A stretch of DNA of 64,000 bases from Vicugna vicugna (taxonomy: Eukaryota), in contig MU058198.1 of assembly GCA_013265495.1 (NCBI GenBank), positions 1,376,419 through 1,440,418 of the forward strand, given 5' to 3'. A program made the translations under genes and the position numbers. Numbering within the stretch: position 1 is the stretch's first letter; each line of letters opens with the position of its first letter. The notes under the pieces are model-generated. The model searched no databases and was not told where the DNA came from. It saw only the letters and a list, made by a program, of their open reading frames with translations. Of this stretch, positions 21,960 to 38,649 are shown in pieces.

Positions 21960-23385
21960 ACAAAGAAGGAAAAGGAGGCAAGAATATTCAATGGAGAAAA
22001 GTCAGTCTCTTTAGCAAGTGGTGCTGGGAAAGCGGGATAGTCACATGTAAATCAATGAAGTTAGAACATTTCCTCACACTCTACACAAAAGTAAACTCAA
22101 AATGGCATAGAGACGTAAATATAAGACATGACACCATAAAACTCCTAGAAGAGAACATAAGCAAAACATTTTCTGACATAAGTCCTAGCAATGTTTTCCT
22201 AGATCAGTCTCCCAAGGCAAAAGAAATAAAAGCAAAAATAAACAAATGTGACCTAATTAAACTTAAAAGCTTTTGCACAGCAAAAGAAACCATAAACATA
22301 ATGAAAAGCCAACCTACAGAATGGGAGAAAATATTTGCAAATGATGTGACTAACAAGGGATTAACTTCCAAAATATACAAAGAGCTTATACAGCTCAGTA
22401 TCAAAAACAAACAAATAACCCAAAGAAAAAATGGGCAGAAGATCTAAATAGACAGTTCTCTAAAGAAGACATACAGATGGCCAACAACCACATGAAAAGA
22501 TGCTCAAAATCACTAATTATCAGAGAAATGCAAATTAAAACTACAATGAGGTATCACCTCACACCAGTTAGAATGCCCATCATTAAAAAGCCTACAAGTT
22601 ATAACTGCTGGAGAAGATGTGGAGAAAAGGGAACCCTCCTACACTGTTGATGGGACTGTAACTTGGTGCAGCCATATGGAAAACAGTTATGGAGCTTCCT
22701 TAAAAAACTAAAAATAGACTTACCCTAAGATCCAGCAATCCCACTCCTGGGCATATATCTGGAAAAGACAAAAACTCTAATCTGAAAAGCTACATGCATC
22801 TTAATGTTCATAACATACTATTTACAATAGCCAAGATATGGAAATAACCTAAATGTCCATCAAGTGAATAGATAAAGATGTGGTATACATATACAATGGA
22901 ATATTACTTAGCCGTAAAAAGGAATGAAATAATGCCATTTGCAGCAACATGGACAGACCTGGAGATTATCCTACTAAGTGGAATAAGTGAGACAGAGAAA
23001 GACAAATATCTTATGATATCACTGCTATGTGGAATCTAAAAAAAAATGATACAAATGAACTTATTTGCAAAGCAAACAAACTCACAGACATAGAAGAGAA
23101 ACCTTTGGGTACCAAAGAGGAAATGGGGATAGGGAGGGATAAATTAGGACTTTGGGATTAACAGATACACGCTAGTATACATAAAATAGATAAACAAGGA
23201 CCTACTGTCTAGCACAGGGAACTATATTCAATATCTTGTAATAACCTATAATGGAAAATAATCTGAAAAAAATATATATTTCATATATATATTCATATAT
23301 GTATATATATGAATCGCTTTGCTGTACACCGAAAGTAACACAACATTGTAAATCAACTATACTTCAATACATATAAAAGAAGAAA
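21960..23385 (+). mobile_element. LINE-1 3' fragment (ORF2 C-terminus + 3' UTR)
   Basis: ORF 22055-22447 ([11 protein letters not shown]...[22 protein letters not shown]...EWEKIFAN); 3' end 'aacattgtaaatcaactatacttcaata'. Confidence 0.9.
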
Positions 23386-23437
23386 ACATGAAGGAGAAGG
23401 TGTGTGAAAAGCACCCCTGAATCAACTTCTACATTTG

Positions 23438-23670
23438 ATCAGGGTTTCTCAGCCTGGGCATTTGTGTTTGGGGTTAGGTAATTAATTCTTTGTTGTAGAG
23501 GCTGCCTTGTGAATTTTAAGATGTTTAGCAGCATCCCTATTCTCCATACACTAGATGGCAGTGTCACTGCTACCTCCCTCTCCCTCCAGACAAGGTGTGA
23601 CAACCCAGTATGCCTCCAGGCATAGACCAACATCCCCCTCGGGCACAACCGCCCCCAGTTGGCAATCACT
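23438..23670 (+). mobile_element. MER20-like DNA transposon
   Basis: 'cagggtttctcagcctggg...ataattctttgttgtagaggctgccttgtgaattttaagatgtttagcagcatccct...gcccccagttggcaatcact'. Confidence 0.65.
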
Positions 23671-24274
23671 CACATAAACTAATGCTTGATCACTGAGAAA
23701 GTTCTAGTTACAGAAGAGAACACATGTGTCTCAAAATCTGACAATAATTCAGCTAATAAAAATCAAAGGGCTAGGGGAGGGAGATAGGAGAAATGGAAAG
23801 TACCAATTAATTTCTCAAAGTAGATACTGATTGATCCAGTCTAATTAGAAAAATGTAGTTTAAAAAAATGTCTCATCACTTAAGGTTTTCCTTACCTCTG
23901 GTGAGATCTTTTGGGATCTTTTAGGAACTATTAATGTTCCTAGTGAAGAAATGTCTACCTGGAAAATGGCTGTTTTCAGTTTCACTTCAGTTGTTTTTCT
24001 CTCAGTTCAAGCTTAAAATCTTTTTATTCAAAACATTATGCATATCCTGGACCCATTTTTATCAGACTATCCATCTACCTTCCATCTGTAAATACGAATA
24101 AATACTTGAAATCTTGTGGGCCCAGAGTTAGTAACATTTGCTTCTTCGTGGCGAGATTTGAAATGTTATCTGACTTCCTCCTTTATACTTTTCTATGTTG
24201 CTTGAATTTTTAAATGACCATGAATCATTGACATATAAAATAATTTTTCTTTATTGTTTTTCTCTTTTTCTTTT

Positions 24275-24901
24275 TAATGCAGGAAAATGGATGTGGGGCG
24301 TGAGGAGGGCCGAGTCCCAGATCTTGGTTGAGTCCTTGGGATGTGCCCTGCCGAGTGTGAGTCCTTGGCTTTGCGCAGGAAAGAATTCAAGTGCGAGCCA
24401 CCGTTGAGTAAAGGTATATTTATTTAGAGAGATACGGCGTAGAGTGTAAGGCAAAAGAGAGGCAAGGAAGGAGGTGTAGGAATTGGGTGCTCAGATTAAA
24501 ATGAAAGTAGGTAAAAACTCCATAGACAGAGTGCGGGCCTGTCTCCAAAGGGGAGAGGGCAGAAGAGCCCATTAGGCGTGGTGTTGGCACTGTCTTAGTA
24601 GCTTCACACTCCTTCAGGTGGGATCAATCCAACTGCCCTGGGGAAGGCGCTGGGATTCCCAGGAATTGGGCCATCGCCTACTCTTTGGCCTTTTGCGGTT
24701 AGCCTTGGGACTGTCATGGCGCCTGCGGGCATGTTATTTGATCATGCTGTTACAATGAGCATGTAATGAAGCTCCAAGTCTACTAGAAGTTAAACCTCTT
24801 AATCCTCAAGGCCAACTAGGAGGTGAGTCTTCCACCATTTTGGTGTTAAATTGCTGTCATTCCTTGAGTGGCTGTGCCCTGCCCTCTTCCCTCCTGTCTC
24901 A
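24275..24901 (-). mobile_element. Solo LTR, family A (ERV1-like), copy 1
   Basis: Minus strand begins TGAGACAGGAGGG; AATAAA on minus near 24420; TSD TTTT; highly similar to 37920-38649. Confidence 0.85.
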
Positions 24902-27781: not shown

Positions 27782-28343
27782 TGGGGGAGCCACTCATGAC
27801 CTGAGGACTGTCGAGCACAGAACGGGACAGAAAATCCCAAAGTGCTGGCGTCAGGCTCTGAGATTGATCTAGCAAAGACAATCTCTGTCCCGCCACCCCT
27901 TTGAAGAAGAATGCACCAGGTGTCCTAAAGCTCTAGGAACATCCAGAGCTATTAAGTCACGGATGACCTTAGAACAGAGAGATACAATCAGCATACAAGT
28001 TAGTTATCTCAGTTTACTTGAATAATTATCTTAGCTAGTGATCTTGATATGCGGGAACATTGACTTTAGTGTATGAGTACTATAAACAATGTTAATCTAT
28101 AGAACAATATACGAGATAATGAGCCCTAAAACAATACCTATGCCTACGTGCAGGAATGCACAAGATAGCTAGTTGAAATTGTATAAATTAACTGCTGAAA
28201 ATAAACTCAATGTCCATTCTTGGCTTAGCGTCTTGCGGGCTTAGAGTGAGACACTCTCAACCCCATCTTTTAGTCTTGTTTTTCTTTTCTCAGTCCTGCA
28301 GCACAGGTTTCTGGACCTGATCGATTGTCGGCTGGCTCCGACA
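27782..28343 (+). repeat. 5' LTR of provirus (562 bp)
   Basis: TG...CA; TATAAA 28182-28187; AATAAA 28200-28205; direct repeat of 34731-35293. Confidence 0.95.
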
Positions 28344-28345
28344 AG

Positions 28346-28363
28346 TGGCGCCCGAACAGGGAC
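28346..28363 (+). promoter_or_regulatory. Primer-binding site complementary to tRNA-Lys3
   Basis: TGGCGCCCGAACAGGGAC, 18/18 match to the Lys3 PBS used by MMTV and lentiviruses, 2 nt after the LTR CA. Confidence 0.95.
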
Positions 28364-28435
28364 CTGAAATCTGGAGGAGATTGCTGCAGCGACCGCCGCG
28401 GAAGAAACGAGGAGCGCTCGATTTTAAAGTAAAAG

Positions 28436-29156
28436 NNNNNNNNNNNNNNNNNNNNNNNNNNNNNNNNNNNNNNNNNNNNNNNNNNNNNNNNNNNNNNNNN
28501 NNNNNNNNNNNNNNNNNNNNNNNNNNNNNNNNNNNNNNNNNNNNNNNNNNNNNNNNNNNNNNNNNNNNNNNNNNNNNNNNNNNNNNNNNNNNNNNNNNNN
28601 NNNNNNNNNNNNNNNNNNNNNNNNNNNNNNNNNNNNNNNNNNNNNNNNNNNNNNNNNNNNNNNNNNNNNNNNNNNNNNNNNNNNNNNNNNNNNNNNNNNN
28701 NNNNNNNNNNNNNNNNNNNNNNNNNNNNNNNNNNNNNNNNNNNNNNNNNNNNNNNNNNNNNNNNNNNNNNNNNNNNNNNNNNNNNNNNNNNNNNNNNNNN
28801 NNNNNNNNNNNNNNNNNNNNNNNNNNNNNNNNNNNNNNNNNNNNNNNNNNNNNNNNNNNNNNNNNNNNNNNNNNNNNNNNNNNNNNNNNNNNNNNNNNNN
28901 NNNNNNNNNNNNNNNNNNNNNNNNNNNNNNNNNNNNNNNNNNNNNNNNNNNNNNNNNNNNNNNNNNNNNNNNNNNNNNNNNNNNNNNNNNNNNNNNNNNN
29001 NNNNNNNNNNNNNNNNNNNNNNNNNNNNNNNNNNNNNNNNNNNNNNNNNNNNNNNNNNNNNNNNNNNNNNNNNNNNNNNNNNNNNNNNNNNNNNNNNNNN
29101 NNNNNNNNNNNNNNNNNNNNNNNNNNNNNNNNNNNNNNNNNNNNNNNNNNNNNNNN
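28436..29156. other. Assembly gap (721 N) covering the proviral leader and 5' gag
   Basis: Run of N. Confidence 1.
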
Positions 29157-29158
29157 CC

Positions 29159-30307
29159 ATTCCTTTTAAACAACTAAAAGAATTAAAAATGGCCTGCGCT
29201 CAGTATGGACCTACTGCTCCTTTTACTCAGGCCATTATTGAGAGTTTAGGAAATCAGTATCTGCCCCCAAATGATTGGAAACAAGTAGCTCGTGCCTGCT
29301 TATCCGGAGGCAACTTTTTACTCTGGAAATCAGAGTTCTATGAAAACTGCGCTGCTATAGCCAATATTAATCAGCAACAGAATATTCAAATCACCTACGA
29401 ACAATTGACTGGGGAAGGTCAATACCAGGATACTAACTCTCAGTTAGGATATTTGCCCGGAGCCTATCCTCAAATAAATGCAGCAGCATCAAAAGCATGG
29501 AAAAGGCTGCCAAATTCCGAATGCAAAACAGAAGATTTATCAAAAATTCGACAGGGTCCTGACGAGCCATACCAAGATTTTGTTGCTCGTCTTATGGAAA
29601 CTATTGGTAAGGTTATAGGGGATGAACAGGCAGGAATGGTCTTAGCAAAACAACTAGCTTATGAAAATGCTAATTCTGCTTGCCAGGCAGCCCTTAGACC
29701 TTACAGAAAAAAGAGTCATTTAGCTGATTTTATACGAATTTGTGCTGACATAGGGCCATCTTATGTCCAAGGAATAGCCCTAGCTGCTGCCTTGCAAGGG
29801 AAAACTGTAAAGGAAGTCTTGTTTCAACAAAACCGTCCCAAACGTAATTTTCAGGGAACTTCCAGAGTTGCTGGACCCCCTGGCAGTTGTTATGCTTGTG
29901 GCCAATTGGGGCATCGAGCAAATCAATGCCCTAAAAGGGGACAACAGCCAACGGGCCAAGATACATTAGTCACAAGCCCAGGTTTATGTCCCAAATGTAA
30001 AAAAGGAAAACATTGGGCCAAAGACTGCCGATCTAAAACTGATATAAACGGGCAACTTCTGAACCAGGGAAACTGGGTGAGGGGCCAGCCCCAGGCCCCG
30101 AAACAATGTTATGGGGCAATTCAGGCAACCTCCCAGATCAGTCACAATCCGTTTCTTCCCGGACAAATATTTCAGACCTCTACAGAGCAACCCCAGGAAG
30201 CGCAGGATTGGACCTCTGTGCCTCCACCTACACAGTATGAACTCCTGAGATGGGAATGCAGGCCCTTCCTACTGAAATTTATGGGCCCTTACCTCCCGAC
30301 AGTGTAG
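29159..30307 (+). CDS. gag: ERV gag, 3' part (CA C-terminal half + NC); open across the visible sequence
   Basis: [42 protein letters not shown], two CCHC knuckles ([28 protein letters not shown]) and the MPMV-like end [10 protein letters not shown], which reads through to 30307. Confidence 0.9.
30067..30117 (+). promoter_or_regulatory. gag-pro -1 ribosomal frameshift signal: G GGA AAC + H-type pseudoknot
   Basis: Slippery heptamer 30067-30073, 7-nt spacer, stem1 GGGGCC(30081-86)/GGCCCC(30094-99), stem2 GCCCCA(30088-93)/TGGGGC(30112-17). Confidence 0.9.
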
Positions 30308-31002
30308 GATTATTGCTAGGACGCAGTAGCACGCCTATGAAAGGATTGTTAATTGCTCCGGGAGTAATTGATTCTGATTTCGAAGGAGAGAGAAAAATAA
30401 TGGCTCACTCTCCACAGACCATAACAGCCATTCCTGCAAGGCAACGTATTGCTCAATTAATTCTTTTACCCACTCTTACTATGGGAAAAACCAAAACTGA
30501 ACGTAAAAGAGGCACTGCAGGTTTTGGCTCCTCTGATGCTTATTGGGTACAACAAATAGGCAACCAGAGGCCTGAATTGACTTTAGAAATTCAGGGAAAG
30601 AAAGCTAAAGGAATTTTAGATACGGGAGCAGATATCTCTGTGATTGCCGCTCCTTACTGGCCTGAAAACTGGCCAAAGCAAGTTGCTCTTTCTATGCTGC
30701 AAGGTATTGGGCAATCGCACAATCCAGAACAAAGCTCCGCTTTTCTTTCTTGGAAGGACACGGAGGGACACTCTGGAATTTTTCAGCCTTATATCCTCCC
30801 TGGCTTACCTGTTAACTTGTGGGGAAGAGACATTATGTCTAATATGGGGGTATTTTTGTATAGCCCTAACCCCACTGTTTCTCATCAGTTATTATCACAA
30901 GGACTATATCCAAATGAAGGTCTGGGGAAACATAATCAAGGAATTACTCAGCCATTACAAATTAAAGGAAAAAGAGATAGGACAGGTTTAGGGTATTTTT
31001 AA
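30070..31002 (+). pseudogene. pro: ERV pro: dUTPase - aspartic protease - G-patch, with in-frame stop at 30238-30240
   Basis: dUTPase motifs GSAGLDL, GRSS, GVIDSDFEGE, RIAQL, RGTAGFGSS; protease LDTGAD and LWGRD; G-patch QGLYPNEGLGKHNQG. Confidence 0.9.
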
Positions 31003-33671
31003 TGCGGGCCCTTGACTGTCCTGCGACTCATGCAGACCCTATTGTATGGAAATCTGATCAACCTGTATGGGTCGATCAATGGCCCCTTTCTCAAGAAAAA
31101 ATTGCCGCTGGAAAGCAATTGGTGCAGGAACAATTGGACAGCGGGCACATTGCTCCTTCTAATTCACCATGGAATTCACCCATATTTATTATTAAGAAAA
31201 AGTCTGGGAAATGGAGATTGTTACAAGATTTACGTAAAGTAAATGAAACTTTAGAATTGATGGGTGCTCTACAGCCTGGCTTGCCTACTCCTATGGCCAT
31301 ACCCGATGGAACATATAAAATTATTATTGATTTAAAAGACTGTTTTTATACTATTCCCTTATATCCTGATGATTGTAAAAGATTTGCATTCAGTGTTCCT
31401 TCCACAAATTTTAAAGAGCCTATGCAACGATATCATTGGCTGGTTTTACCTCAAGGTATGGCTAATAGCCCCACCTTATGTCAAAAATTTGTGGCTAAAG
31501 CCTTACAACCTATTCGTTTGAAGTATCCAGATGTTTATCTAATCCACTATATGGATGATATTTTGATTGCACATTCTCAAGAAGGCTACTTGTTAACTGT
31601 ATTTGATCAAATGTTAATAGCCTTAAATTCTTCCGACCTTCAAATTGCGAAAGAAAAGGTTCAGAGATTTTTGTCCATATGCTTATTTGGCTTATTTCGA
31701 CTACATAATTTTACCTTTCAAACCCAAAAGATTCAGTTACGTACTGATTCTTTATTAACTTTAAATGATTTTCAAAAATTTCTTGGCGATATCAATTGGA
31801 TACGCCCTTATTTAAAGCTTTCTACAGGAACTTTAAAGCCTTTATTTGACATTCTTAAAGGAGATGCCAATCCTCGCTCTCCTAGAAAATTAACTGCTGA
31901 AGCTTCTCTGGCTTTACGTGATGTAGAGCAGGCCATTGAAAACCAGCAATGTACTTACTGTGATTATACTCAAGAATGGAGTTTACTTATTTTACCCACT
32001 CCTCATATGCCAACCGGAGTGCTTTATCAGCATAGTCCTATGTATTGGATACATATGCATGTTTCCCCTTCAAAAGCTTTAGCTGCTTATCCTAATTTAG
32101 TCTGTTCTTTAATTGCAGAGGGACGTACTGCCTCCACTTTATATTTAGGCAGAGACCCACATTATATTACAGTTCCATATACTAGAGAGCAACAAGCTCA
32201 GTTACAACAATTTAATGATTCTTGGGCTCTTGCTCTGACTCACTTTACAGGACGCATTACTACCCATTATCCTGCTGATAAGTTAATTCAATTTGCGAAG
32301 TTACATCCATTTCTTTTTCCAAAAAATACTGTTCTTTCCCCCTCTTTCCTCAGCCACTACAGTGTTCACCGATGGGTCATCAAATGGTATTGCTGCTTAC
32401 ATTATAAATGATGAGACTATATCTTGGCAAACTTCTCAAACTTCTGCTCAAGTTGTAGAATTATTAGCAGTTCAAGCTGCTTTAATAGCAGTTCAACATG
32501 TGCCCTGTAATCTTTTTTCTGACAGTCAATATATCGTTCGAGCCTTGCAAATTTTGGAAACTGTTCCCTTTATTGGCACTGTTAATTCCTATGTCAACCG
32601 CTTATTTTTTGACGTGCAACTTATTATTCGCAGTCGCCGTCATCCTTGCTATTTTGGTCATCTCCGAGCACACACTAATTTACCTGGCCCTCTTTCTGAA
32701 GGTAATGCTAATGTTGATCGCGCCACTCAGCTTTATCCTGCCCTTGAAGAAGCTAAACAATGTCTTGCGCTTCATCATCAAAATAGTCATAGCTTGCGGC
32801 TGCAATTTAAAATCCCTCGTGAAGCTGTTCTCAAATTGTAAAAACCTGCCCTACCTGCCCTACGACATTTTCTGTGCCTCATTATGGGGTTAATCCCAGT
32901 GGGCTTTTACCTTATCACCTTTGGCAAATGGATGTTACTCATATCAAAGAATTTCGTAACACTCCTTTTGTCCATGTCAGCATTGACACTTGCTCAGGGT
33001 TTATTCATGCTACTTTACAAACTGGAGAAGCTAGTAAACATTGTATTAATCATCTTTTAAAGTGTTTTGCTGTCATGAGTAAACCTCGCGTACTTAAAAC
33101 TGATAATGGCCCCGGCTACACTAGCCGGATGTTTCAACGCTTTTGCCAGACACTTAAAATTGAACATAAAACTGGAATTGCCTATAATCCTCAAGGGCAA
33201 GGAATTCTGGAACGTTGTCATCAAACTCTTAAACATCAGATTCATAAAGTAAAGAAGGGGGAATTATATCCCCTTACTCCACAAAACTATTTACATCATG
33301 CCCTTTTTGTTTTAAATTTTTTGACGTATGATATTAAAGGCAATTCAGCTGCTCAACGCTTTTGGAACCAAAAACCCTCTCACCACCCTTTGGTGAGATG
33401 GAAGGATCCACTTACTAATCAATGGGCCGGCGCTGATCCAGTTTTAATGTGGGGGAGAGGCCATGTTTGTGTTTTTCCACAGGATGCCTACACGCCGCGC
33501 TGGCTCCCGGAAAGGCTGGTACGCCAGGCGGAGGAGAGCGGTGATAAAACACCTTCAACAACTGCAGATCCAAAAGAAAACACCCCTGCCGACGATTCAG
33601 CAAATGGAACAACTGATTCAACAAGCGAATCAGATAAGCGAGAACAACTGAAAATCCACAAATGTCATTAA
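31002..33671 (+). pseudogene. pol: ERV pol (RT-RNaseH-IN), frameshifted
   Basis: VWVDQWPL, SPWNSPIFIIKKKSGKWRLLQDLR, IIDLKDCFY, LPQGMANSP, YMDD, TVFTDGSSNG, CPTC, WQMDVTH/KTDNG/GILER. Frame changes near 32340 and 32830, plus a compensated shift at ~31668-31697. Confidence 0.92.
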
Positions 33672-34677
33672 TGTTTCTGGTCATTAGTTTGGCATGTACC
33701 ATTGCTCTTATGCCCTTTCCTGGTGCCCAAGCAAATGTATTTTTGTCATGGGCTCAATCTTATGCTGAATTCCATAATACATCTGATTGTTGGGTTTGCA
33801 GTGCTATGCCGTTGTCTGTTGGCAGCTTGCCTTGGTGGGGTATGCCTGTTACTAAACATGAATTTCATGCTATATGTGAGTTACTGTTACAACAAAAACA
33901 ATGATATTTGTATTCTCAAAATGTGTCTGCACTTGCCTGGTGTTCTGTAAAAGTTATGCATTCTGAATTTTTCTTTGACCTTAATGCTACATTTGAGGAA
34001 GCCATGGACATTTATGAAAAAGCCCCACAACAGGCTAAACAACGAGATGCAGATGTTTCTGGACGTCTTATTGGACAATATTATCAAATATGGGATGATG
34101 TACTTTGGGTTTTGTTATAGCACCAGGAAGGATTGTAAAATCAGTACAAGGTGTCTGTCCCTGCCAATATGCCTAATTTGCACGCTCGTTGGAGCAGAGC
34201 TGCTTTTAAATGGTATGATTATCTTGCTGCTATTTTTCTTCCTTCATTAGGAAATGTTGATGTTATGACTAAAGTAAATGCACTGACAAATTTTACACAA
34301 AAGGCATTGACCGATGTAAAACATGCAGTGGAAGAGTTAAATGCAGAACAAAAGCTTATGAGAAAAGCAGTTTTACAAAATAGAATGGCTCTCGATATAA
34401 TTACTGCAGCACAAGGAGGAACCTGTGCTATTATTAAGGTAGAATGTTGTGTGTTTATACCAGATGTATCTGGCAATGTGTCCCAAGCAGTAGAAGATAC
34501 ATGCAAGAACAGATAAGAAATATGGATTCCCCTACTCCATTCTTACCAGCACAATGGTTTGATTGGTTTAAAAGTGATTGGTGGAAACATGCTTTAATAT
34601 GGCTCCTACTCTCTTGTTTATCAGAATTTCTGACGCAACGTATGCTTGCTTTTAGCCGCATTCATCGGCAAAATTAG
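33484..34677 (+). pseudogene. env: ERV env remnant: beta-type Arg-rich leader fused to gamma-type SU/TM; stops, frameshifts and internal deletion
   Basis: Splice acceptor TTTGTGTTTTTCCACAG|G immediately before ATG 33484; MPTRRAGSRKGWYARRRR...; hydrophobic signal core; NTSDCWVC; furin-like [26 protein letters not shown]6CC; Trp-rich membrane-proximal region. Confidence 0.88.
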
Positions 34678-34713
34678 TAGGATGTCCTGAGCTTGGACAA
34701 GCCTGGCAATTTT

Positions 34714-34730
34714 AAAATAAAAAAGGGAGT
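34714..34730 (+). promoter_or_regulatory. Polypurine tract
   Basis: AAAATAAAAAAGGGAG(T) immediately before the 3' LTR. Confidence 0.85.
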
Positions 34731-35293
34731 TGCGGGGAGCCACTCATGACCTGAGGACTGTCGAGCACAGAATGGGACGGAAAATCCCAAAGTGCTGGCG
34801 TCAGGCTCTGAGATTGATCTAGCAAAGACAATCTCTGTCCCGCCACCCCTTTGAAGAAGAATGCACCAGGTGTCCTAAAGCTCTAGGAACATCCAGAGCT
34901 ATTAAGTCACGGATGACCTTAGAACAGAGAGATACAATCAGCATACAAGTTAGTTATCTCAGTTTACTTGAATAATTATCTTAGCTAGTGATCTTGATAT
35001 GCGGGAACATTGACTTTAGTGTATGAGTACTATAAACAGTGTTAATCTATAGAACAATATACGAGATAATGAGCCCTAAAACAATACCTATGCCTACGTG
35101 CAGGAATGCACAAGATAGCTAGTTGAAATTGTATAAATTAACTGCTGAAAATAAACTCAATGTCCATTCTTGGCTTAGCGTCTTGCGGGCTTAGAGTGAG
35201 ACCCTCTCAACCCCATCTTTTAGTCTTGTCTTTCTTTTCTCAGTCCTGCAGCACAGGTTTCTGGACCTGATCGATTGTCGGCTGGCTCCGACA
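34731..35293 (+). repeat. 3' LTR of provirus (563 bp)
   Basis: Differs from the 5' LTR by 5 substitutions and 1 indel (manual comparison). Confidence 0.95.
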
Positions 35294-36565
35294 GAAGATA
35301 CAATGAAATGGAAAGATATATCATGTTTATAGAGTATAAGAATAACATTGTTAAAGTGTCCATATTACCCAAAGCAATCTACAGATTCAGTGCAATCCCT
35401 ATTAACATGCCAATGGCATAATTCACAGAACTGGATTAAAGAATCCTAAAACTTGCATGGAACCACAAAAGAATAATAACCAAAACAACCTTGAGAAAGA
35501 AGAACAAGGGTCAAGGTATCACACCCCCTAATCAAACTGTACCAGGAAGCTATAGCAATAAAAACAGCATGGTGCTGGCACAAAACAGACACACAGATCA
35601 ATGGAACTGAACGGAAAGCCCGGAAGTATACCTACACATATATGGACAATTAATTTATAACCGAAAGGTGAAGAATATTTCATGGAGAAAGGGCAGTCTC
35701 TTTAACCAGTGGTTCTGGGAAAACTGGACGGCCAAGTTTAAAGAATGAAATTAGACCACAATCATACATTATATACAAATATTGACTTAAAAAAGGATTA
35801 AAGACCTGAATGTAAGGCTGGAAATTATAGAATTTCCGTACGAAAACATAGGCAATAACCTCTTTGACATGGGTCTCAGTGATTTTTTTGTGGCTCTGAC
35901 TCCAAATCAAGGGAAACAAAAGCAAAAATAAATAAGTGGGACTCCATCAAACTAAAAAGCTTCTGCACAGTGAAGGAATTCATTATCAAAACAAAAAGGC
36001 AACCTACTAAATGGGAGAGGTTATTTGCAAATCATATATCTGACAATGGCTAATATCCAAAATATATAAAGAATTCATACAACTCAACAACAACAGCAAA
36101 AACAAACAACTGGGTTAAAATGGGGACAGAATCTGAACATTTTTCCAAAGAAGACACACAGTGGCCAACAGCCACAGGAAAAGATGCTCAATGTCGCTAA
36201 TTATTAGAGAAATGAAAACCAAAACCACAATGAGATATCACCTCATACCTATTAGAATGGCTATTATCAAAAAGACAAGGAATAACAAATGTTGAAGAGG
36301 ATGAGGAGAAAAGGGAACCCTCATACACTGTCAGTGGGAATGCAGATTTATGCAGCCACTATGGAAAACAGCATGGAGATTCCTTAAAAAAGTTAAGAAT
36401 AAAACTACCGTATGACCCAGCCATTCCACTTCTGGGTATTTATCTGAAGAACATAAAAACACTAATTTGAAAAGATATATGCAACCCTGTGTTCATTACA
36501 GCATTGCTTACATAGACAAGATATGGAAATGCCCATCCTATCAACAGATTAATGGATAAAGAAGA
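35294..36565 (+). mobile_element. LINE-1 ORF2/3' fragment (continuation of the element split by the provirus)
   Basis: 'aatggaaagatatatcatgtt...ccatattacccaaagcaatctacagattcagtgcaatccctatt...actccatcaaactaaaaagcttctgcacag'. Confidence 0.9.
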
Positions 36566-37620
36566 CTATCACAAAAAATCTAACATTTGTATCATCAGAA
36601 TCCCAAAAGTTGAGAAAGATAGGGCAGGGCTGGAAAATTACTCTAAGAAAGAATGCCAGAAATGTTCTAAAATTTGTCAAGAAATAAACTATAGAATTTA
36701 ACAATAATAAAAAATAATTATACACCAGGACTACATGGGGTTTATTTCAGGGAAGCAAGGCTGTTCAATGCTTAAAAATCAATCAATTAAATCTACCTAA
36801 CTGACAGGCTAATGAAGAAAAATCATATGATAATATTAATTGACATGGAAAAGGCATTTTCCAAAATTCAAGACTTATACGTGATAAAAATTCTCAGAAA
36901 AATAGGAATAGATGAGAGCTTCCTACACTTGATAAAGTTTTTTGTAGGTACTCTTTATCAAGTTAAATGTGAAAGACTGACCATTTCCCTTCTAATATCG
37001 GAAACAAGGCAGGGATGTCTGCTATCAACATTCTTAATCAACATAGTTCTAGGGGGGGATATATGTCACGTGGTAGAGCACATGCATAGCATGCAGGAGG
37101 TCCTGGAGGTCCTGGATTCAATCCTCCATATCTCCAAAAATAAATAAATAAACTTAATTACCACCCCCTCCCCCGCCACTGCCAAAAAAAAAAAAAATGG
37201 TTCTGGGAATTCTAGTCAGTGTAATAAGGCAAGAAAAGGAAGTAAAAGGCATATATCTCCAAAAGGAAGAAGTTAAAACTGTCCCTATTTGTGAATGATG
37301 TGATTATCTACATGGAAAAATCCCAAGGAATCAACAACAAAAACTTCCTAGAACTAAAAGGGGACCAATAGGATTAACAGACCAACATTACTATATATAA
37401 AATAGATAAACAACAAGGATCTGCTGTATAGCACAGGGAACTGTATTCAATTTCTCATAATAACATATAATGGAAAAGAATCTGAAAAGAAAAAATATAT
37501 ATACATGTACATATAATAAAATATATATGTATAACTGAATCTCTTTGCTATTCACCTGAAACATGGTAAATCAACTACAATTCAATAAAAAATTTTAAAA
37601 AACAAAACAAAACAAAAGGG
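36566..37620 (+). mobile_element. Older LINE-1 ORF1/ORF2 pieces plus a short L1 3' end, with a Vic-1-like SINE at ~37052-37197
   Basis: ORF 36812 KKNHMIILIDMEKAFSKIQ...TRQGCLLS (L1 RT); SINE with GTGGTAGAGCACATGC and A-tail. Confidence 0.75.
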
Positions 37621-37919
37621 GGACCAATAAATTCCTCATTTTGTTTAAGTGAATTTGACTTGGGTTTTTGTCATGTGTAACTGAGTTATTTACACATCAA
37701 GTATTTATTAAGTGCCTAAAATTCACCAACATCTGTTTTAGACACTAGTGACACTTCAGCGAACAAAACAAATTGTTACTCTTAAGGGTGGTAGTAAGAG
37801 ACACAAAAAGTCACAACAGGTTAAAGAGACAAAAATGAGGGATGCTATTTTAGAAAATGTGGTCAGGGAAGCCCTCTTTGATAGGACATGAGGGATTTGA
37901 CCAAGGATAGTGTTCTAGG

Positions 37920-38649
37920 TGATACAGGAAAACAGATCTGCAGCATGAGGAGGGCCGAGTCCCAGGTCTCGGTTGAGCCCTTGGGATGTGCCCTGCCAAG
38001 TGTGGGTCCTTGGCTTCGCGCAGGAAAGATTTCAAGTGCGAGCTACCATTGAGTTAAGATAGATGTATTTAGAGAGATACACTGCATAGAGTGTAAGACA
38101 AGAGAAAGGCAAGGAAGGAGGTGTGGGAATTGGTGCTCAGGTTGAAGTAAAAGTAGGTAAACTCTCCATAGACAGAGTGCAGGCGTCTCCAAAGGGGGGA
38201 GAGCGCAAAGGGCCACTAGGCATGGTGTTGTCAGTTTTTATGGTCTCAGTAGCTTCACATGCCTACAGTGGGATCAATCCAACTGCCCTGGGGAAGGGGC
38301 TGGGGTTCCCAGGGACTGGGCCACCACCCATTCTTTGGCCTTTTGAGGTTAGCCTTGGGGCTGTCATGGCGCCTGCAGGCATGTTATTTGATCAGCTGTT
38401 ACAATGAGCATATAATGAAGCTCAAGATCTACTAGAAGTTAAACCTCTTAAATCTTAAGGCCCACTAGGAGGTGAATCTTCCACCATTTTGGTGTTAAAT
38501 TGCTGTCATTCCTTCAGTGGCTATGGCCTGATAGAAGTTAAACCTCTTAATCCTTAAGGCCCACTAGGAGGTGAATCTTCCACCATTTTGGTGTTAAATT
38601 GCTGTCATTCCTTCAGTGGCTATGGCCTGGCCCCTTCCCTCCTGTCTCA
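37920..38649 (-). mobile_element. Solo LTR, family A, copy 2, with internal ~99-bp tandem duplication
   Basis: TSD TAGG both sides; paralogous to 24275-24901; unit repeated at 38433-38530 and 38532-38629. Confidence 0.88.

Follow-up and report, generated by a model that had tools for sequence, protein, structure and literature searches.

A JSRV-type Env signal peptide ahead of a gamma-type envelope in a camelid provirus family, predicted from sequence, and its likely role as a Rej-like regulator

Results

A long leader opens env

We analyzed a 64,000-nucleotide stretch of the Vicugna vicugna genome (GenBank assembly GCA_013265495.1, contig MU058198.1, positions 1,376,419 to 1,440,418; hereafter the window), which carries an endogenous betaretroviral provirus. 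The env gene of this provirus family opens with a long leader that resembles Rej, the Env signal peptide (SP) of jaagsiekte sheep retrovirus (JSRV). The leader stands before a captured gamma-type envelope, and we consider it probable that it acted as a Rej-like regulator. The window copy itself is a dead fossil, and the interest rests with the family. A preliminary description of the window, made from its letters alone, had proposed a Rev-like RNA export factor that was kept while the fusion machinery was swapped. Coordinates are window positions, and the leader and envelope features lie on the plus strand.

The env splice acceptor (TTTGTGTTTTTCCACAG|G, 33466..33483) is a pyrimidine tract followed by CAG|G, directly before the ATG at 33484. 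From this ATG, the n-region of the leader (33484..33651) is open for 55 amino acids (aa), with a stop at codon 56. The acceptor and the opening residues are as given in the preliminary description, and the frame yields the 50 residues quoted there. The hydrophobic h-region and the c-region, which ends in PGAQA at a predicted signal-peptidase site (33668..33733), are out of the ATG frame in this copy. The hydrophobic core, LMFLVISLACTIALM, has a mean hydropathy of 2.64. The predicted frameshift before this core is present, and we place it near 33640; the n- and h-regions are in different frames. The window copy of the leader is broken, and a full-length leader cannot be made from it.

A genome search gave 26 matches to the family. 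Seven were excluded (five without the start region, one duplicate locus, and one from a different lineage), and the 19 loci with an alignable start were used for the leader counts. The ATG is retained in 18 of the 19. In seven loci the leader is open from the ATG to the surface subunit (SU), with a length of 80 or 83 aa and an A-x-A end, in agreement with the leader of about 80 aa that had been proposed. It has the tripartite n-h-c organization, with small residues at -3 and -1, of the long betaretroviral Env SPs.

Homology to the JSRV signal peptide

Window residues 1 to 52 are identical to JSRV Env (AAD45228.2) at 23 of 48 positions. The score against JSRV Env residues 1 to 84 was reached by none of 2,000 shuffles, and that of residues 17 to 52 alone by 2 of 2,000. 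With the first 16 residues removed, all four comparisons made were surpassed by just 0 to 4 of 2,000 shuffles. We also built a profile from seven natural leaders and ran it against 1.84 billion proteins (E ≤ 0.001). All eight hits were JSRV-type leaders. Among the four that head a beta-type Env are deer proteins and a cluster of 353 members that contains the Env of JSRV and of enzootic nasal tumor virus (ENTV), including AAD45228.2. The other four are closer leaders, two of which are clearly followed by the same gamma-type start of SU. These alignments show that the leader and the JSRV Env SP are truly homologous. The resemblance to Rej claimed in the preliminary description was borne out by the alignment and extends beyond the conserved integrase (IN) end.

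Neither HERV-K (human endogenous retrovirus K) nor mouse mammary tumor virus (MMTV), whose sequence was not compared directly with the leader, was among the profile hits. Pfam placed no Rec-, Rem-, or Rej-related family on the leader. A word-indexed search with a single leader found nothing (17 candidates), and its profile version found only a camel protein. The Atlas yielded clusters of TLV_coat and a single filovirus row, and nothing else. Within the vicugna genome, the leader weakly matched an HML-type leader (8.7 bits, with 4.4 as the best of 900 shuffles). Three older HML-like endogenous retroviruses (L130, L131, and L135) have a beta-type env and keep a TWGQI helix in their leaders; they serve as outgroups within the genome.

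Selection on two overlapping frames

The IN frame overlaps the whole n-region (52 to 55 codons in unshifted copies), but conserved integrase covers only the first 15 or so leader codons. The overlap of about 14 residues given in the preliminary description holds for conserved integrase, but not for the frame as a whole. We compared dN/dS in the two frames. In codons 1 to 14, it was 0.77 in the env frame and 0.20 in the IN frame. In codons 15 to 55, it was 0.30 in the env frame and 1.41 in the IN frame, and at the first, second, and third env codon positions 13, 16, and 31 of 38 columns were variable (Fisher p 1e-5). Values of 0.13 and 0.04 were found for the h/c region and the SU start, and an integrase-only control had a pN/pS of 0.10. 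Past its conserved end, the IN tail is rich in S, T, and D and cannot be aligned meaningfully. Invariant in the leader are RKGWYARR (alignment A1), L24, L35-P36-T37, Q40, and A48. Under RKGWYARR, none of eight integrase third positions varies, compared with 36 of the 68 positions upstream (p about 0.002, in a window picked post hoc).

These values indicate that leader codons 15 to 55 are under purifying selection as a peptide, in the env frame. The preliminary description had named a lack of leader-frame conservation beyond the IN overlap as the finding that would count against it; when tested, the frame proved to be conserved there. A resemblance to JSRV wholly forced by integrase was rejected, because the similarity persists past the conserved IN end and codons 15 to 55 are selected in the env frame.

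The n-region might have been kept passively, with acceptor, ATG, and integrase end locked together and its conservation due to IN coding, splicing, and targeting to the endoplasmic reticulum (ER). It would then have no job after cleavage. The stronger IN-frame constraint on codons 1 to 14 fits this view, as do the IN motif RWLPERLV, which simian retroviruses 1 and 4 share, and a 3-residue indel that is tolerated within the leader. However, the env frame is under selection over codons 15 to 55, where the IN tail drifts, and the invariant L24, L35-P36-T37, Q40, and A48 belong to a pattern that recurs in JSRV and deer. Moreover, ER targeting does not need a 55-residue n-region, since the donor lineage manages with about 25 to 35 residues in total. 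We regard passive retention as improbable.

A gamma-type envelope behind a betaretroviral leader

The leader is followed by a gamma-type remnant of SU and the transmembrane subunit (TM) (33734..34680) that has stops and frameshifts and lacks about 300 bases. It contains the N-terminal CWVC of SU (33788-33799) and the immunosuppressive domain and CX6CC of TM (34373-34450), the CXXC, immunosuppressive domain, and CX6CC being features of a gamma-type Env. Pfam assigned TLV_coat to SU/TM (E 2.5e-16), and syncytin-2 was the best PDB hit; the envelope is PABLB/syncytin-2-like. Nothing meaningful was found between this SU/TM and that of JSRV (best E 0.70). One feature of a gamma-type Env, the short canonical signal peptide, is missing; the JSRV-type leader of 80 to 83 aa is the chimeric feature. 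A short signal peptide (about 21 to 64 aa in murine leukemia virus, avian leukosis virus, and human T-cell leukemia virus) marks gamma-type Env (PMC9967133).

Out of many weaker matches to SU, we inspected four distant class I relatives. These have gamma-type integrase ends and short leaders of about 25 to 35 residues in all. From the mature SU start, 24 to 28 of 59 residues match the family, whereas immediately upstream only 2 to 7 of 24 to 27 do. Because the relatives match only from mature SU, the env swap spared the leader. The swap point lies somewhere from about residue 50 to the cleavage site. Little of the h/c region still matches JSRV (5 of 28 identical), and we rejected an exact recombination point because residues 51 to 80 resemble neither JSRV nor the donors. 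Together, the JSRV-homologous leader, the TLV_coat-type SU/TM, and the short-leader donors support the view that the betaretroviral leader was retained while SU/TM was exchanged for a gamma-type envelope, as the preliminary description had supposed.

The same chimera of JSRV-type leader and SU/TM is present in XP_010953408.2 of Camelus bactrianus ("ERV group PABLB member 1 Env polyprotein-like"). This automatic annotation names only the gamma-type part, and the protein, with 51% over the leader, represents a lineage that has diverged further. In Camelus ferus, the camel chimeric Env bears the annotation "WD repeat-containing protein 73 isoform" (P0037 and P0038), probably because the gene model is in error or because a provirus lies within WDR73. 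Three more diverged chimeric envs from other assemblies (P0005, P0006, and P0007) share the leader. P0006 and P0007 clearly extend into the start of the same gamma-type SU; the lineage is therefore not confined to this genome.

A provirus made from spliced env RNA

Exact use of the acceptor is recorded in another provirus, G000:C2947 (L010, L029, and L136), where donor and env acceptor meet precisely at their GT-AG boundaries and share one G. Its order is long terminal repeat (LTR), primer-binding site, leader, donor-acceptor joint, env, and LTR, with a 5-bp target duplication. Both LTRs are complete (563 of 565 positions identical), and the leader frame is broken. The simplest reading is an env mRNA that was packaged and then reverse transcribed. 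A deletion at a one-base microhomology could have struck both splice sites only by coincidence. A retrocopy made by a long interspersed nuclear element (LINE) was rejected, because two full LTRs are present. This one copy of fossil DNA shows that a singly spliced env RNA existed and that the splice was used. Since a subgenomic RNA was packaged and reverse transcribed, part of the packaging signal lies upstream of the donor. After splicing, the base at -3 relative to the leader ATG is an A. Two raw-read runs gave 0 matching reads, and two contig sets, which are not on record as RNA, contained mixed relatives and no GT-AG joint; these results have no bearing on expression.

Several other copies differ around the acceptor or the leader. 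L012 and L021 have the acceptor CAAG|ATG rather than CAG|GATG, a change that is synonymous for integrase and displaces the AG by one base. A 5'-truncated copy (L013/L086, G000:C8097) starts at the h-region and has no n-region; it is flanked by non-viral DNA with a pyrimidine-rich end. In L018 and L019 (G000:C4104 and C3841), the gag start is fused straight into the leader n-region, and gag-pol, the acceptor, and the env ATG are absent. L126 and L128 (G000:C8189 and C6043) represent a separate betaretroviral lineage that shares the acceptor but has no ATG behind it, and that has a long integrase tail. Most of their SU is gone, and the +1 frame has a stretch rich in proline and arginine.

Motifs and predicted structure of the leader

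The Arg-rich motif RRAGSRKGWYARRRR (residues 4 to 18, 33493..33537) is a predicted nuclear localization signal (NLS) or nucleolar signal and RNA-binding motif, and it is nearly identical to that of JSRV. As a sequence motif, it gives residues 1 to 20 eight K/R in the window and seven or eight in all seven leaders. It is followed by VIKHLQQLQI (residues 20 to 29, 33541..33570), which resembles a nuclear export signal (NES) of class 1a/1b spacing. Six NES spacing classes were considered. Of the 11 aligned leaders, 10, those of JSRV and ENTV among them, have this spacing in an identical register. A predicted second helix with the pattern LPT..Q..A (residues 35 to 48, 33586..33627) is homologous to the LPTQRQ helix of JSRV, and the pattern also occurs in deer sequences. 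An NES within the LPT helix was rejected, because it fits none of the six classes. The preliminary description had claimed both an Arg-rich and an NES-like motif. The first is present; the second is not found at the LPT helix, where it had been placed, but a class 1a/1b pattern occurs at residues 20 to 29 instead.

Search for an RNA response element

When env and the LTR were folded in 45 sliding windows, a single one reached z -2.5, at the env end and U3 start. The candidate is a stem-loop at the 5' end of U3 (34736..34811, plus strand). The JSRV response element sits in a comparable place, at the env end and U3 (PMC3185594). Three of eight sense-strand LTR folds, all of a related type, were below z -2.5, and the other five were above it. 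A stem-loop unit of about 60 bases at the U3 start is in tandem duplicate in one LTR type and single elsewhere (L009, L014, L016, L020, and others). The LTR type does not always match the env type, which hints at recombination inside the family. Rfam matched no response-element family; it gave only the gag/pro frameshift site and two sub-threshold hits. The SPRE core, a known cis element of gamma-type env, was absent at up to three mismatches from the window and from all five sibling loci.

These results bear on a different function for the leader. It could be a stable, nucleolus-seeking long SP with another job, such as a part in the folding or processing of Env or an effect directed at the host, while unspliced RNA was moved by a cis element. 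The precedent is the HERV-K(HML-2) SP, which has an NLS and an NES and reaches nucleoli, but neither shuttles nor exports RNA (PMC2649029). JSRV itself has a constitutive transport element (CTE) (PMC3185594), and this family retains the U3 stem-loop unit, with a duplication in some LTR types. In addition, 13 copy comparisons revealed no internal deletion bounded by GT-AG that would point to a doubly spliced form, which Rec requires but Rej and Rem can do without. On the other side, the closest homologue of the leader is the JSRV SP, which acts in its cleaved form (PMC3185594) and has a nearly identical Arg-rich core, and the absent SPRE core leaves that cis element out of account. We hold an HML-2-like role to be unlikely, though clearly less so than passive retention.

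Layout and age of the window provirus

The provirus occupies 27782-35293, and its outer ends carry a 6-bp target-site duplication (GAAGAC/GAAGAT). The 5' LTR (TG...CA, 27782..28343) and the 3' LTR (34731..35293), both on the plus strand, are identical at 557 of 562 aligned bases, with five differences and one gap. This divergence of about 1% suggests insertion some 1.5 to 2.5 million years ago, at a neutral rate that we assume to be 2-3e-9 per site per year. Also on the plus strand, a primer-binding site (28346..28363), recognized by sequence and presumably of the tRNA-Lys type, is followed by the first base of the major splice donor (28435), the remainder of which is inside an N gap (28436-29156). 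Most family copies have AA|GTAAGT at this position after the primer-binding site. The gag/pro frameshift site (Rfam RF01097) is at 30067-30118. By Pfam, the pro frame (30241..31002, plus strand) contains dUTPase, protease, and G-patch in the betaretroviral layout. The pol gene (30981..33671, plus strand) has reverse transcriptase (RT), RNase H, and IN in three broken frames, and its IN tail spans the entire leader n-region. The dUTPase in pro, the G-patch, the Lys primer-binding site, and the class II RT are those of a betaretrovirus. The best of 275 Pol hits was the JSRV and endogenous JSRV (enJSRV) Pol cluster (584 members, sheep and JSRV sequences; 62% over 93%), as against 56 to 57% for simian retroviruses.

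Similar blocks about 13.65 kb apart lie on either side of the provirus region (22200-24900 and 35900-38600), with pieces 74 to 91% identical. They consist of LINE-1 ends and another repeated unit and suggest an old local duplication. A sub-threshold Rfam match in the RT region (31105-31393) to the Rous sarcoma virus RNA stability element (45 bits, cutoff 105) is probably due to coding similarity.

Discussion

We propose that the leader is a JSRV-type Env SP before a captured gamma-type envelope and that it probably acted as a Rej-like regulator. By analogy with JSRV and MMTV, the h-region would target Env to the ER. Signal peptidase would cleave after A-x-A, and the freed peptide would be drawn back to the cytosol. 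The Arg-rich helix could then carry it into the nucleus and nucleolus, and the peptide may bind an element in the 3' env/U3 part of viral RNA. It would raise Gag output from unspliced genomes through translation and perhaps through CRM1 export. JSRV Rej acts mainly on translation, and its effect on export is modest and cell dependent, seen in a single cell line (PMC3185594). Since the integrase frame contains the acceptor, the ATG, and the n-region, an env swap would be forced downstream of them, and selection would maintain the leader peptide afterward.

Several results weigh against this proposal, in addition to the inactive HML-2 SP and the missing doubly spliced form. One of five lineage representatives is without the NES spacing. 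Some NES pattern arose in 13 to 29% of shuffled n-regions, and so only the fixed register counts. The AlphaFold2 model, with helices at 6-31, 38-54, and 58-76, is weak (pTM 0.28). The dN/dS values come from five diverged lineage representatives in 10 pooled, non-independent pairs, and the n-region is under less constraint than the h-region or the SU start. The invariance under RKGWYARR could be attributed to an exonic splicing signal or enhancer. In the RT tree (22 rows), the JSRV cluster is nearest to the window, but without starred support. The folding evidence for a U3 response element is marginal, and none of the 26 predicted pairs of the stem-loop has a two-sided change. Every sequence test that we ran places the leader among the long betaretroviral SPs, and it is a putative member of the Rev-like exporters.

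Long multifunctional betaretroviral SPs and betaretroviruses with a gamma-type env are both known (PMC9967133, PMC3758190, PMC10536682). Retroviruses often exchange their env. Rev-like factors of betaretroviruses are encoded inside env, and a swap is therefore assumed to delete them; a bat betaretrovirus paper argues that gaining a gamma env would cause loss of any Rev-like protein (PMC3621094). In this family, the leader outlived the swap under selection, unlike the assumed loss that forces reliance on a cis element. A regulator detached from its usual envelope offers a natural test of what long betaretroviral SPs do and of the reason for which the JSRV SP is active and the HML-2 SP is not. 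Our literature search, which covered mainly openly available papers and judged most of them by their titles and the opening of their abstracts, listed no publication that describes a gamma-type Env behind a JSRV-type leader or deals with the camelid family. More tentatively, and with somewhat more doubt than belief, these could have been complex betaretroviruses with a gamma-type env. Recombination close to the signal-peptidase site would have handled the leader as a separate regulatory module, with entry changed, a Rev-like factor still working, and the U3 stem-loop as its element, spread over several camelid LTR types and other hosts. If true, they would be a counterexample to the view that gain of a gamma env makes a betaretrovirus simple.

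Among known systems, the leader is most like the SPs of JSRV, ENTV, and enJSRV. It is of similar length (80 to 83 aa, and 84 in JSRV), its ATG directly follows the acceptor, and it shares with JSRV the RxGWYAR core, the hydrophobic spacing at 20 to 29, and the LPT..Q..A helix. However, the JSRV SP heads a beta-type Env, whereas the camelid-family leader heads a gamma-type SU/TM. In HML-2 Rec and SP, too, the env leader has an Arg-rich NLS with a leucine-rich region behind it. Unlike anything found here, HML-2 Rec exports RNA only after a second splice and with a new C terminus (PMC2649029).

The comparison with MMTV Rem concerns layout. An Arg-rich helix, a second helix, and a membrane helix are predicted for the leader, in the order modeled for the MMTV Rem/p14 SP (PMC8725593). 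Retrotranslocation of the MMTV SP requires a WQ pair at 57-58 (PMC8725593, PMC9694287). Unlike MMTV, the camelid family has no W in the second helix. We take this helix to be the equivalent of the MMTV WQ positions.

The type-D recombinants, Mason-Pfizer monkey virus (MPMV), simian retrovirus (SRV), squirrel monkey retrovirus (SMRV), and bat group VIII, are alike in having a betaretroviral gag-pro-pol that acquired a gamma-type env by recombination. The MPMV leader is presumably short. One paper describes betaretroviral prototypes as having long n-regions, and its figure includes MPMV (PMC2649029). The type-D viruses are described as simple and CTE using, with any Rev-like gene assumed lost (PMC3621094, PMC3758190, PMC9967133). 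The camelid family is unlike them in that its leader was spared and its envelope is PABLB/syncytin-2-like.

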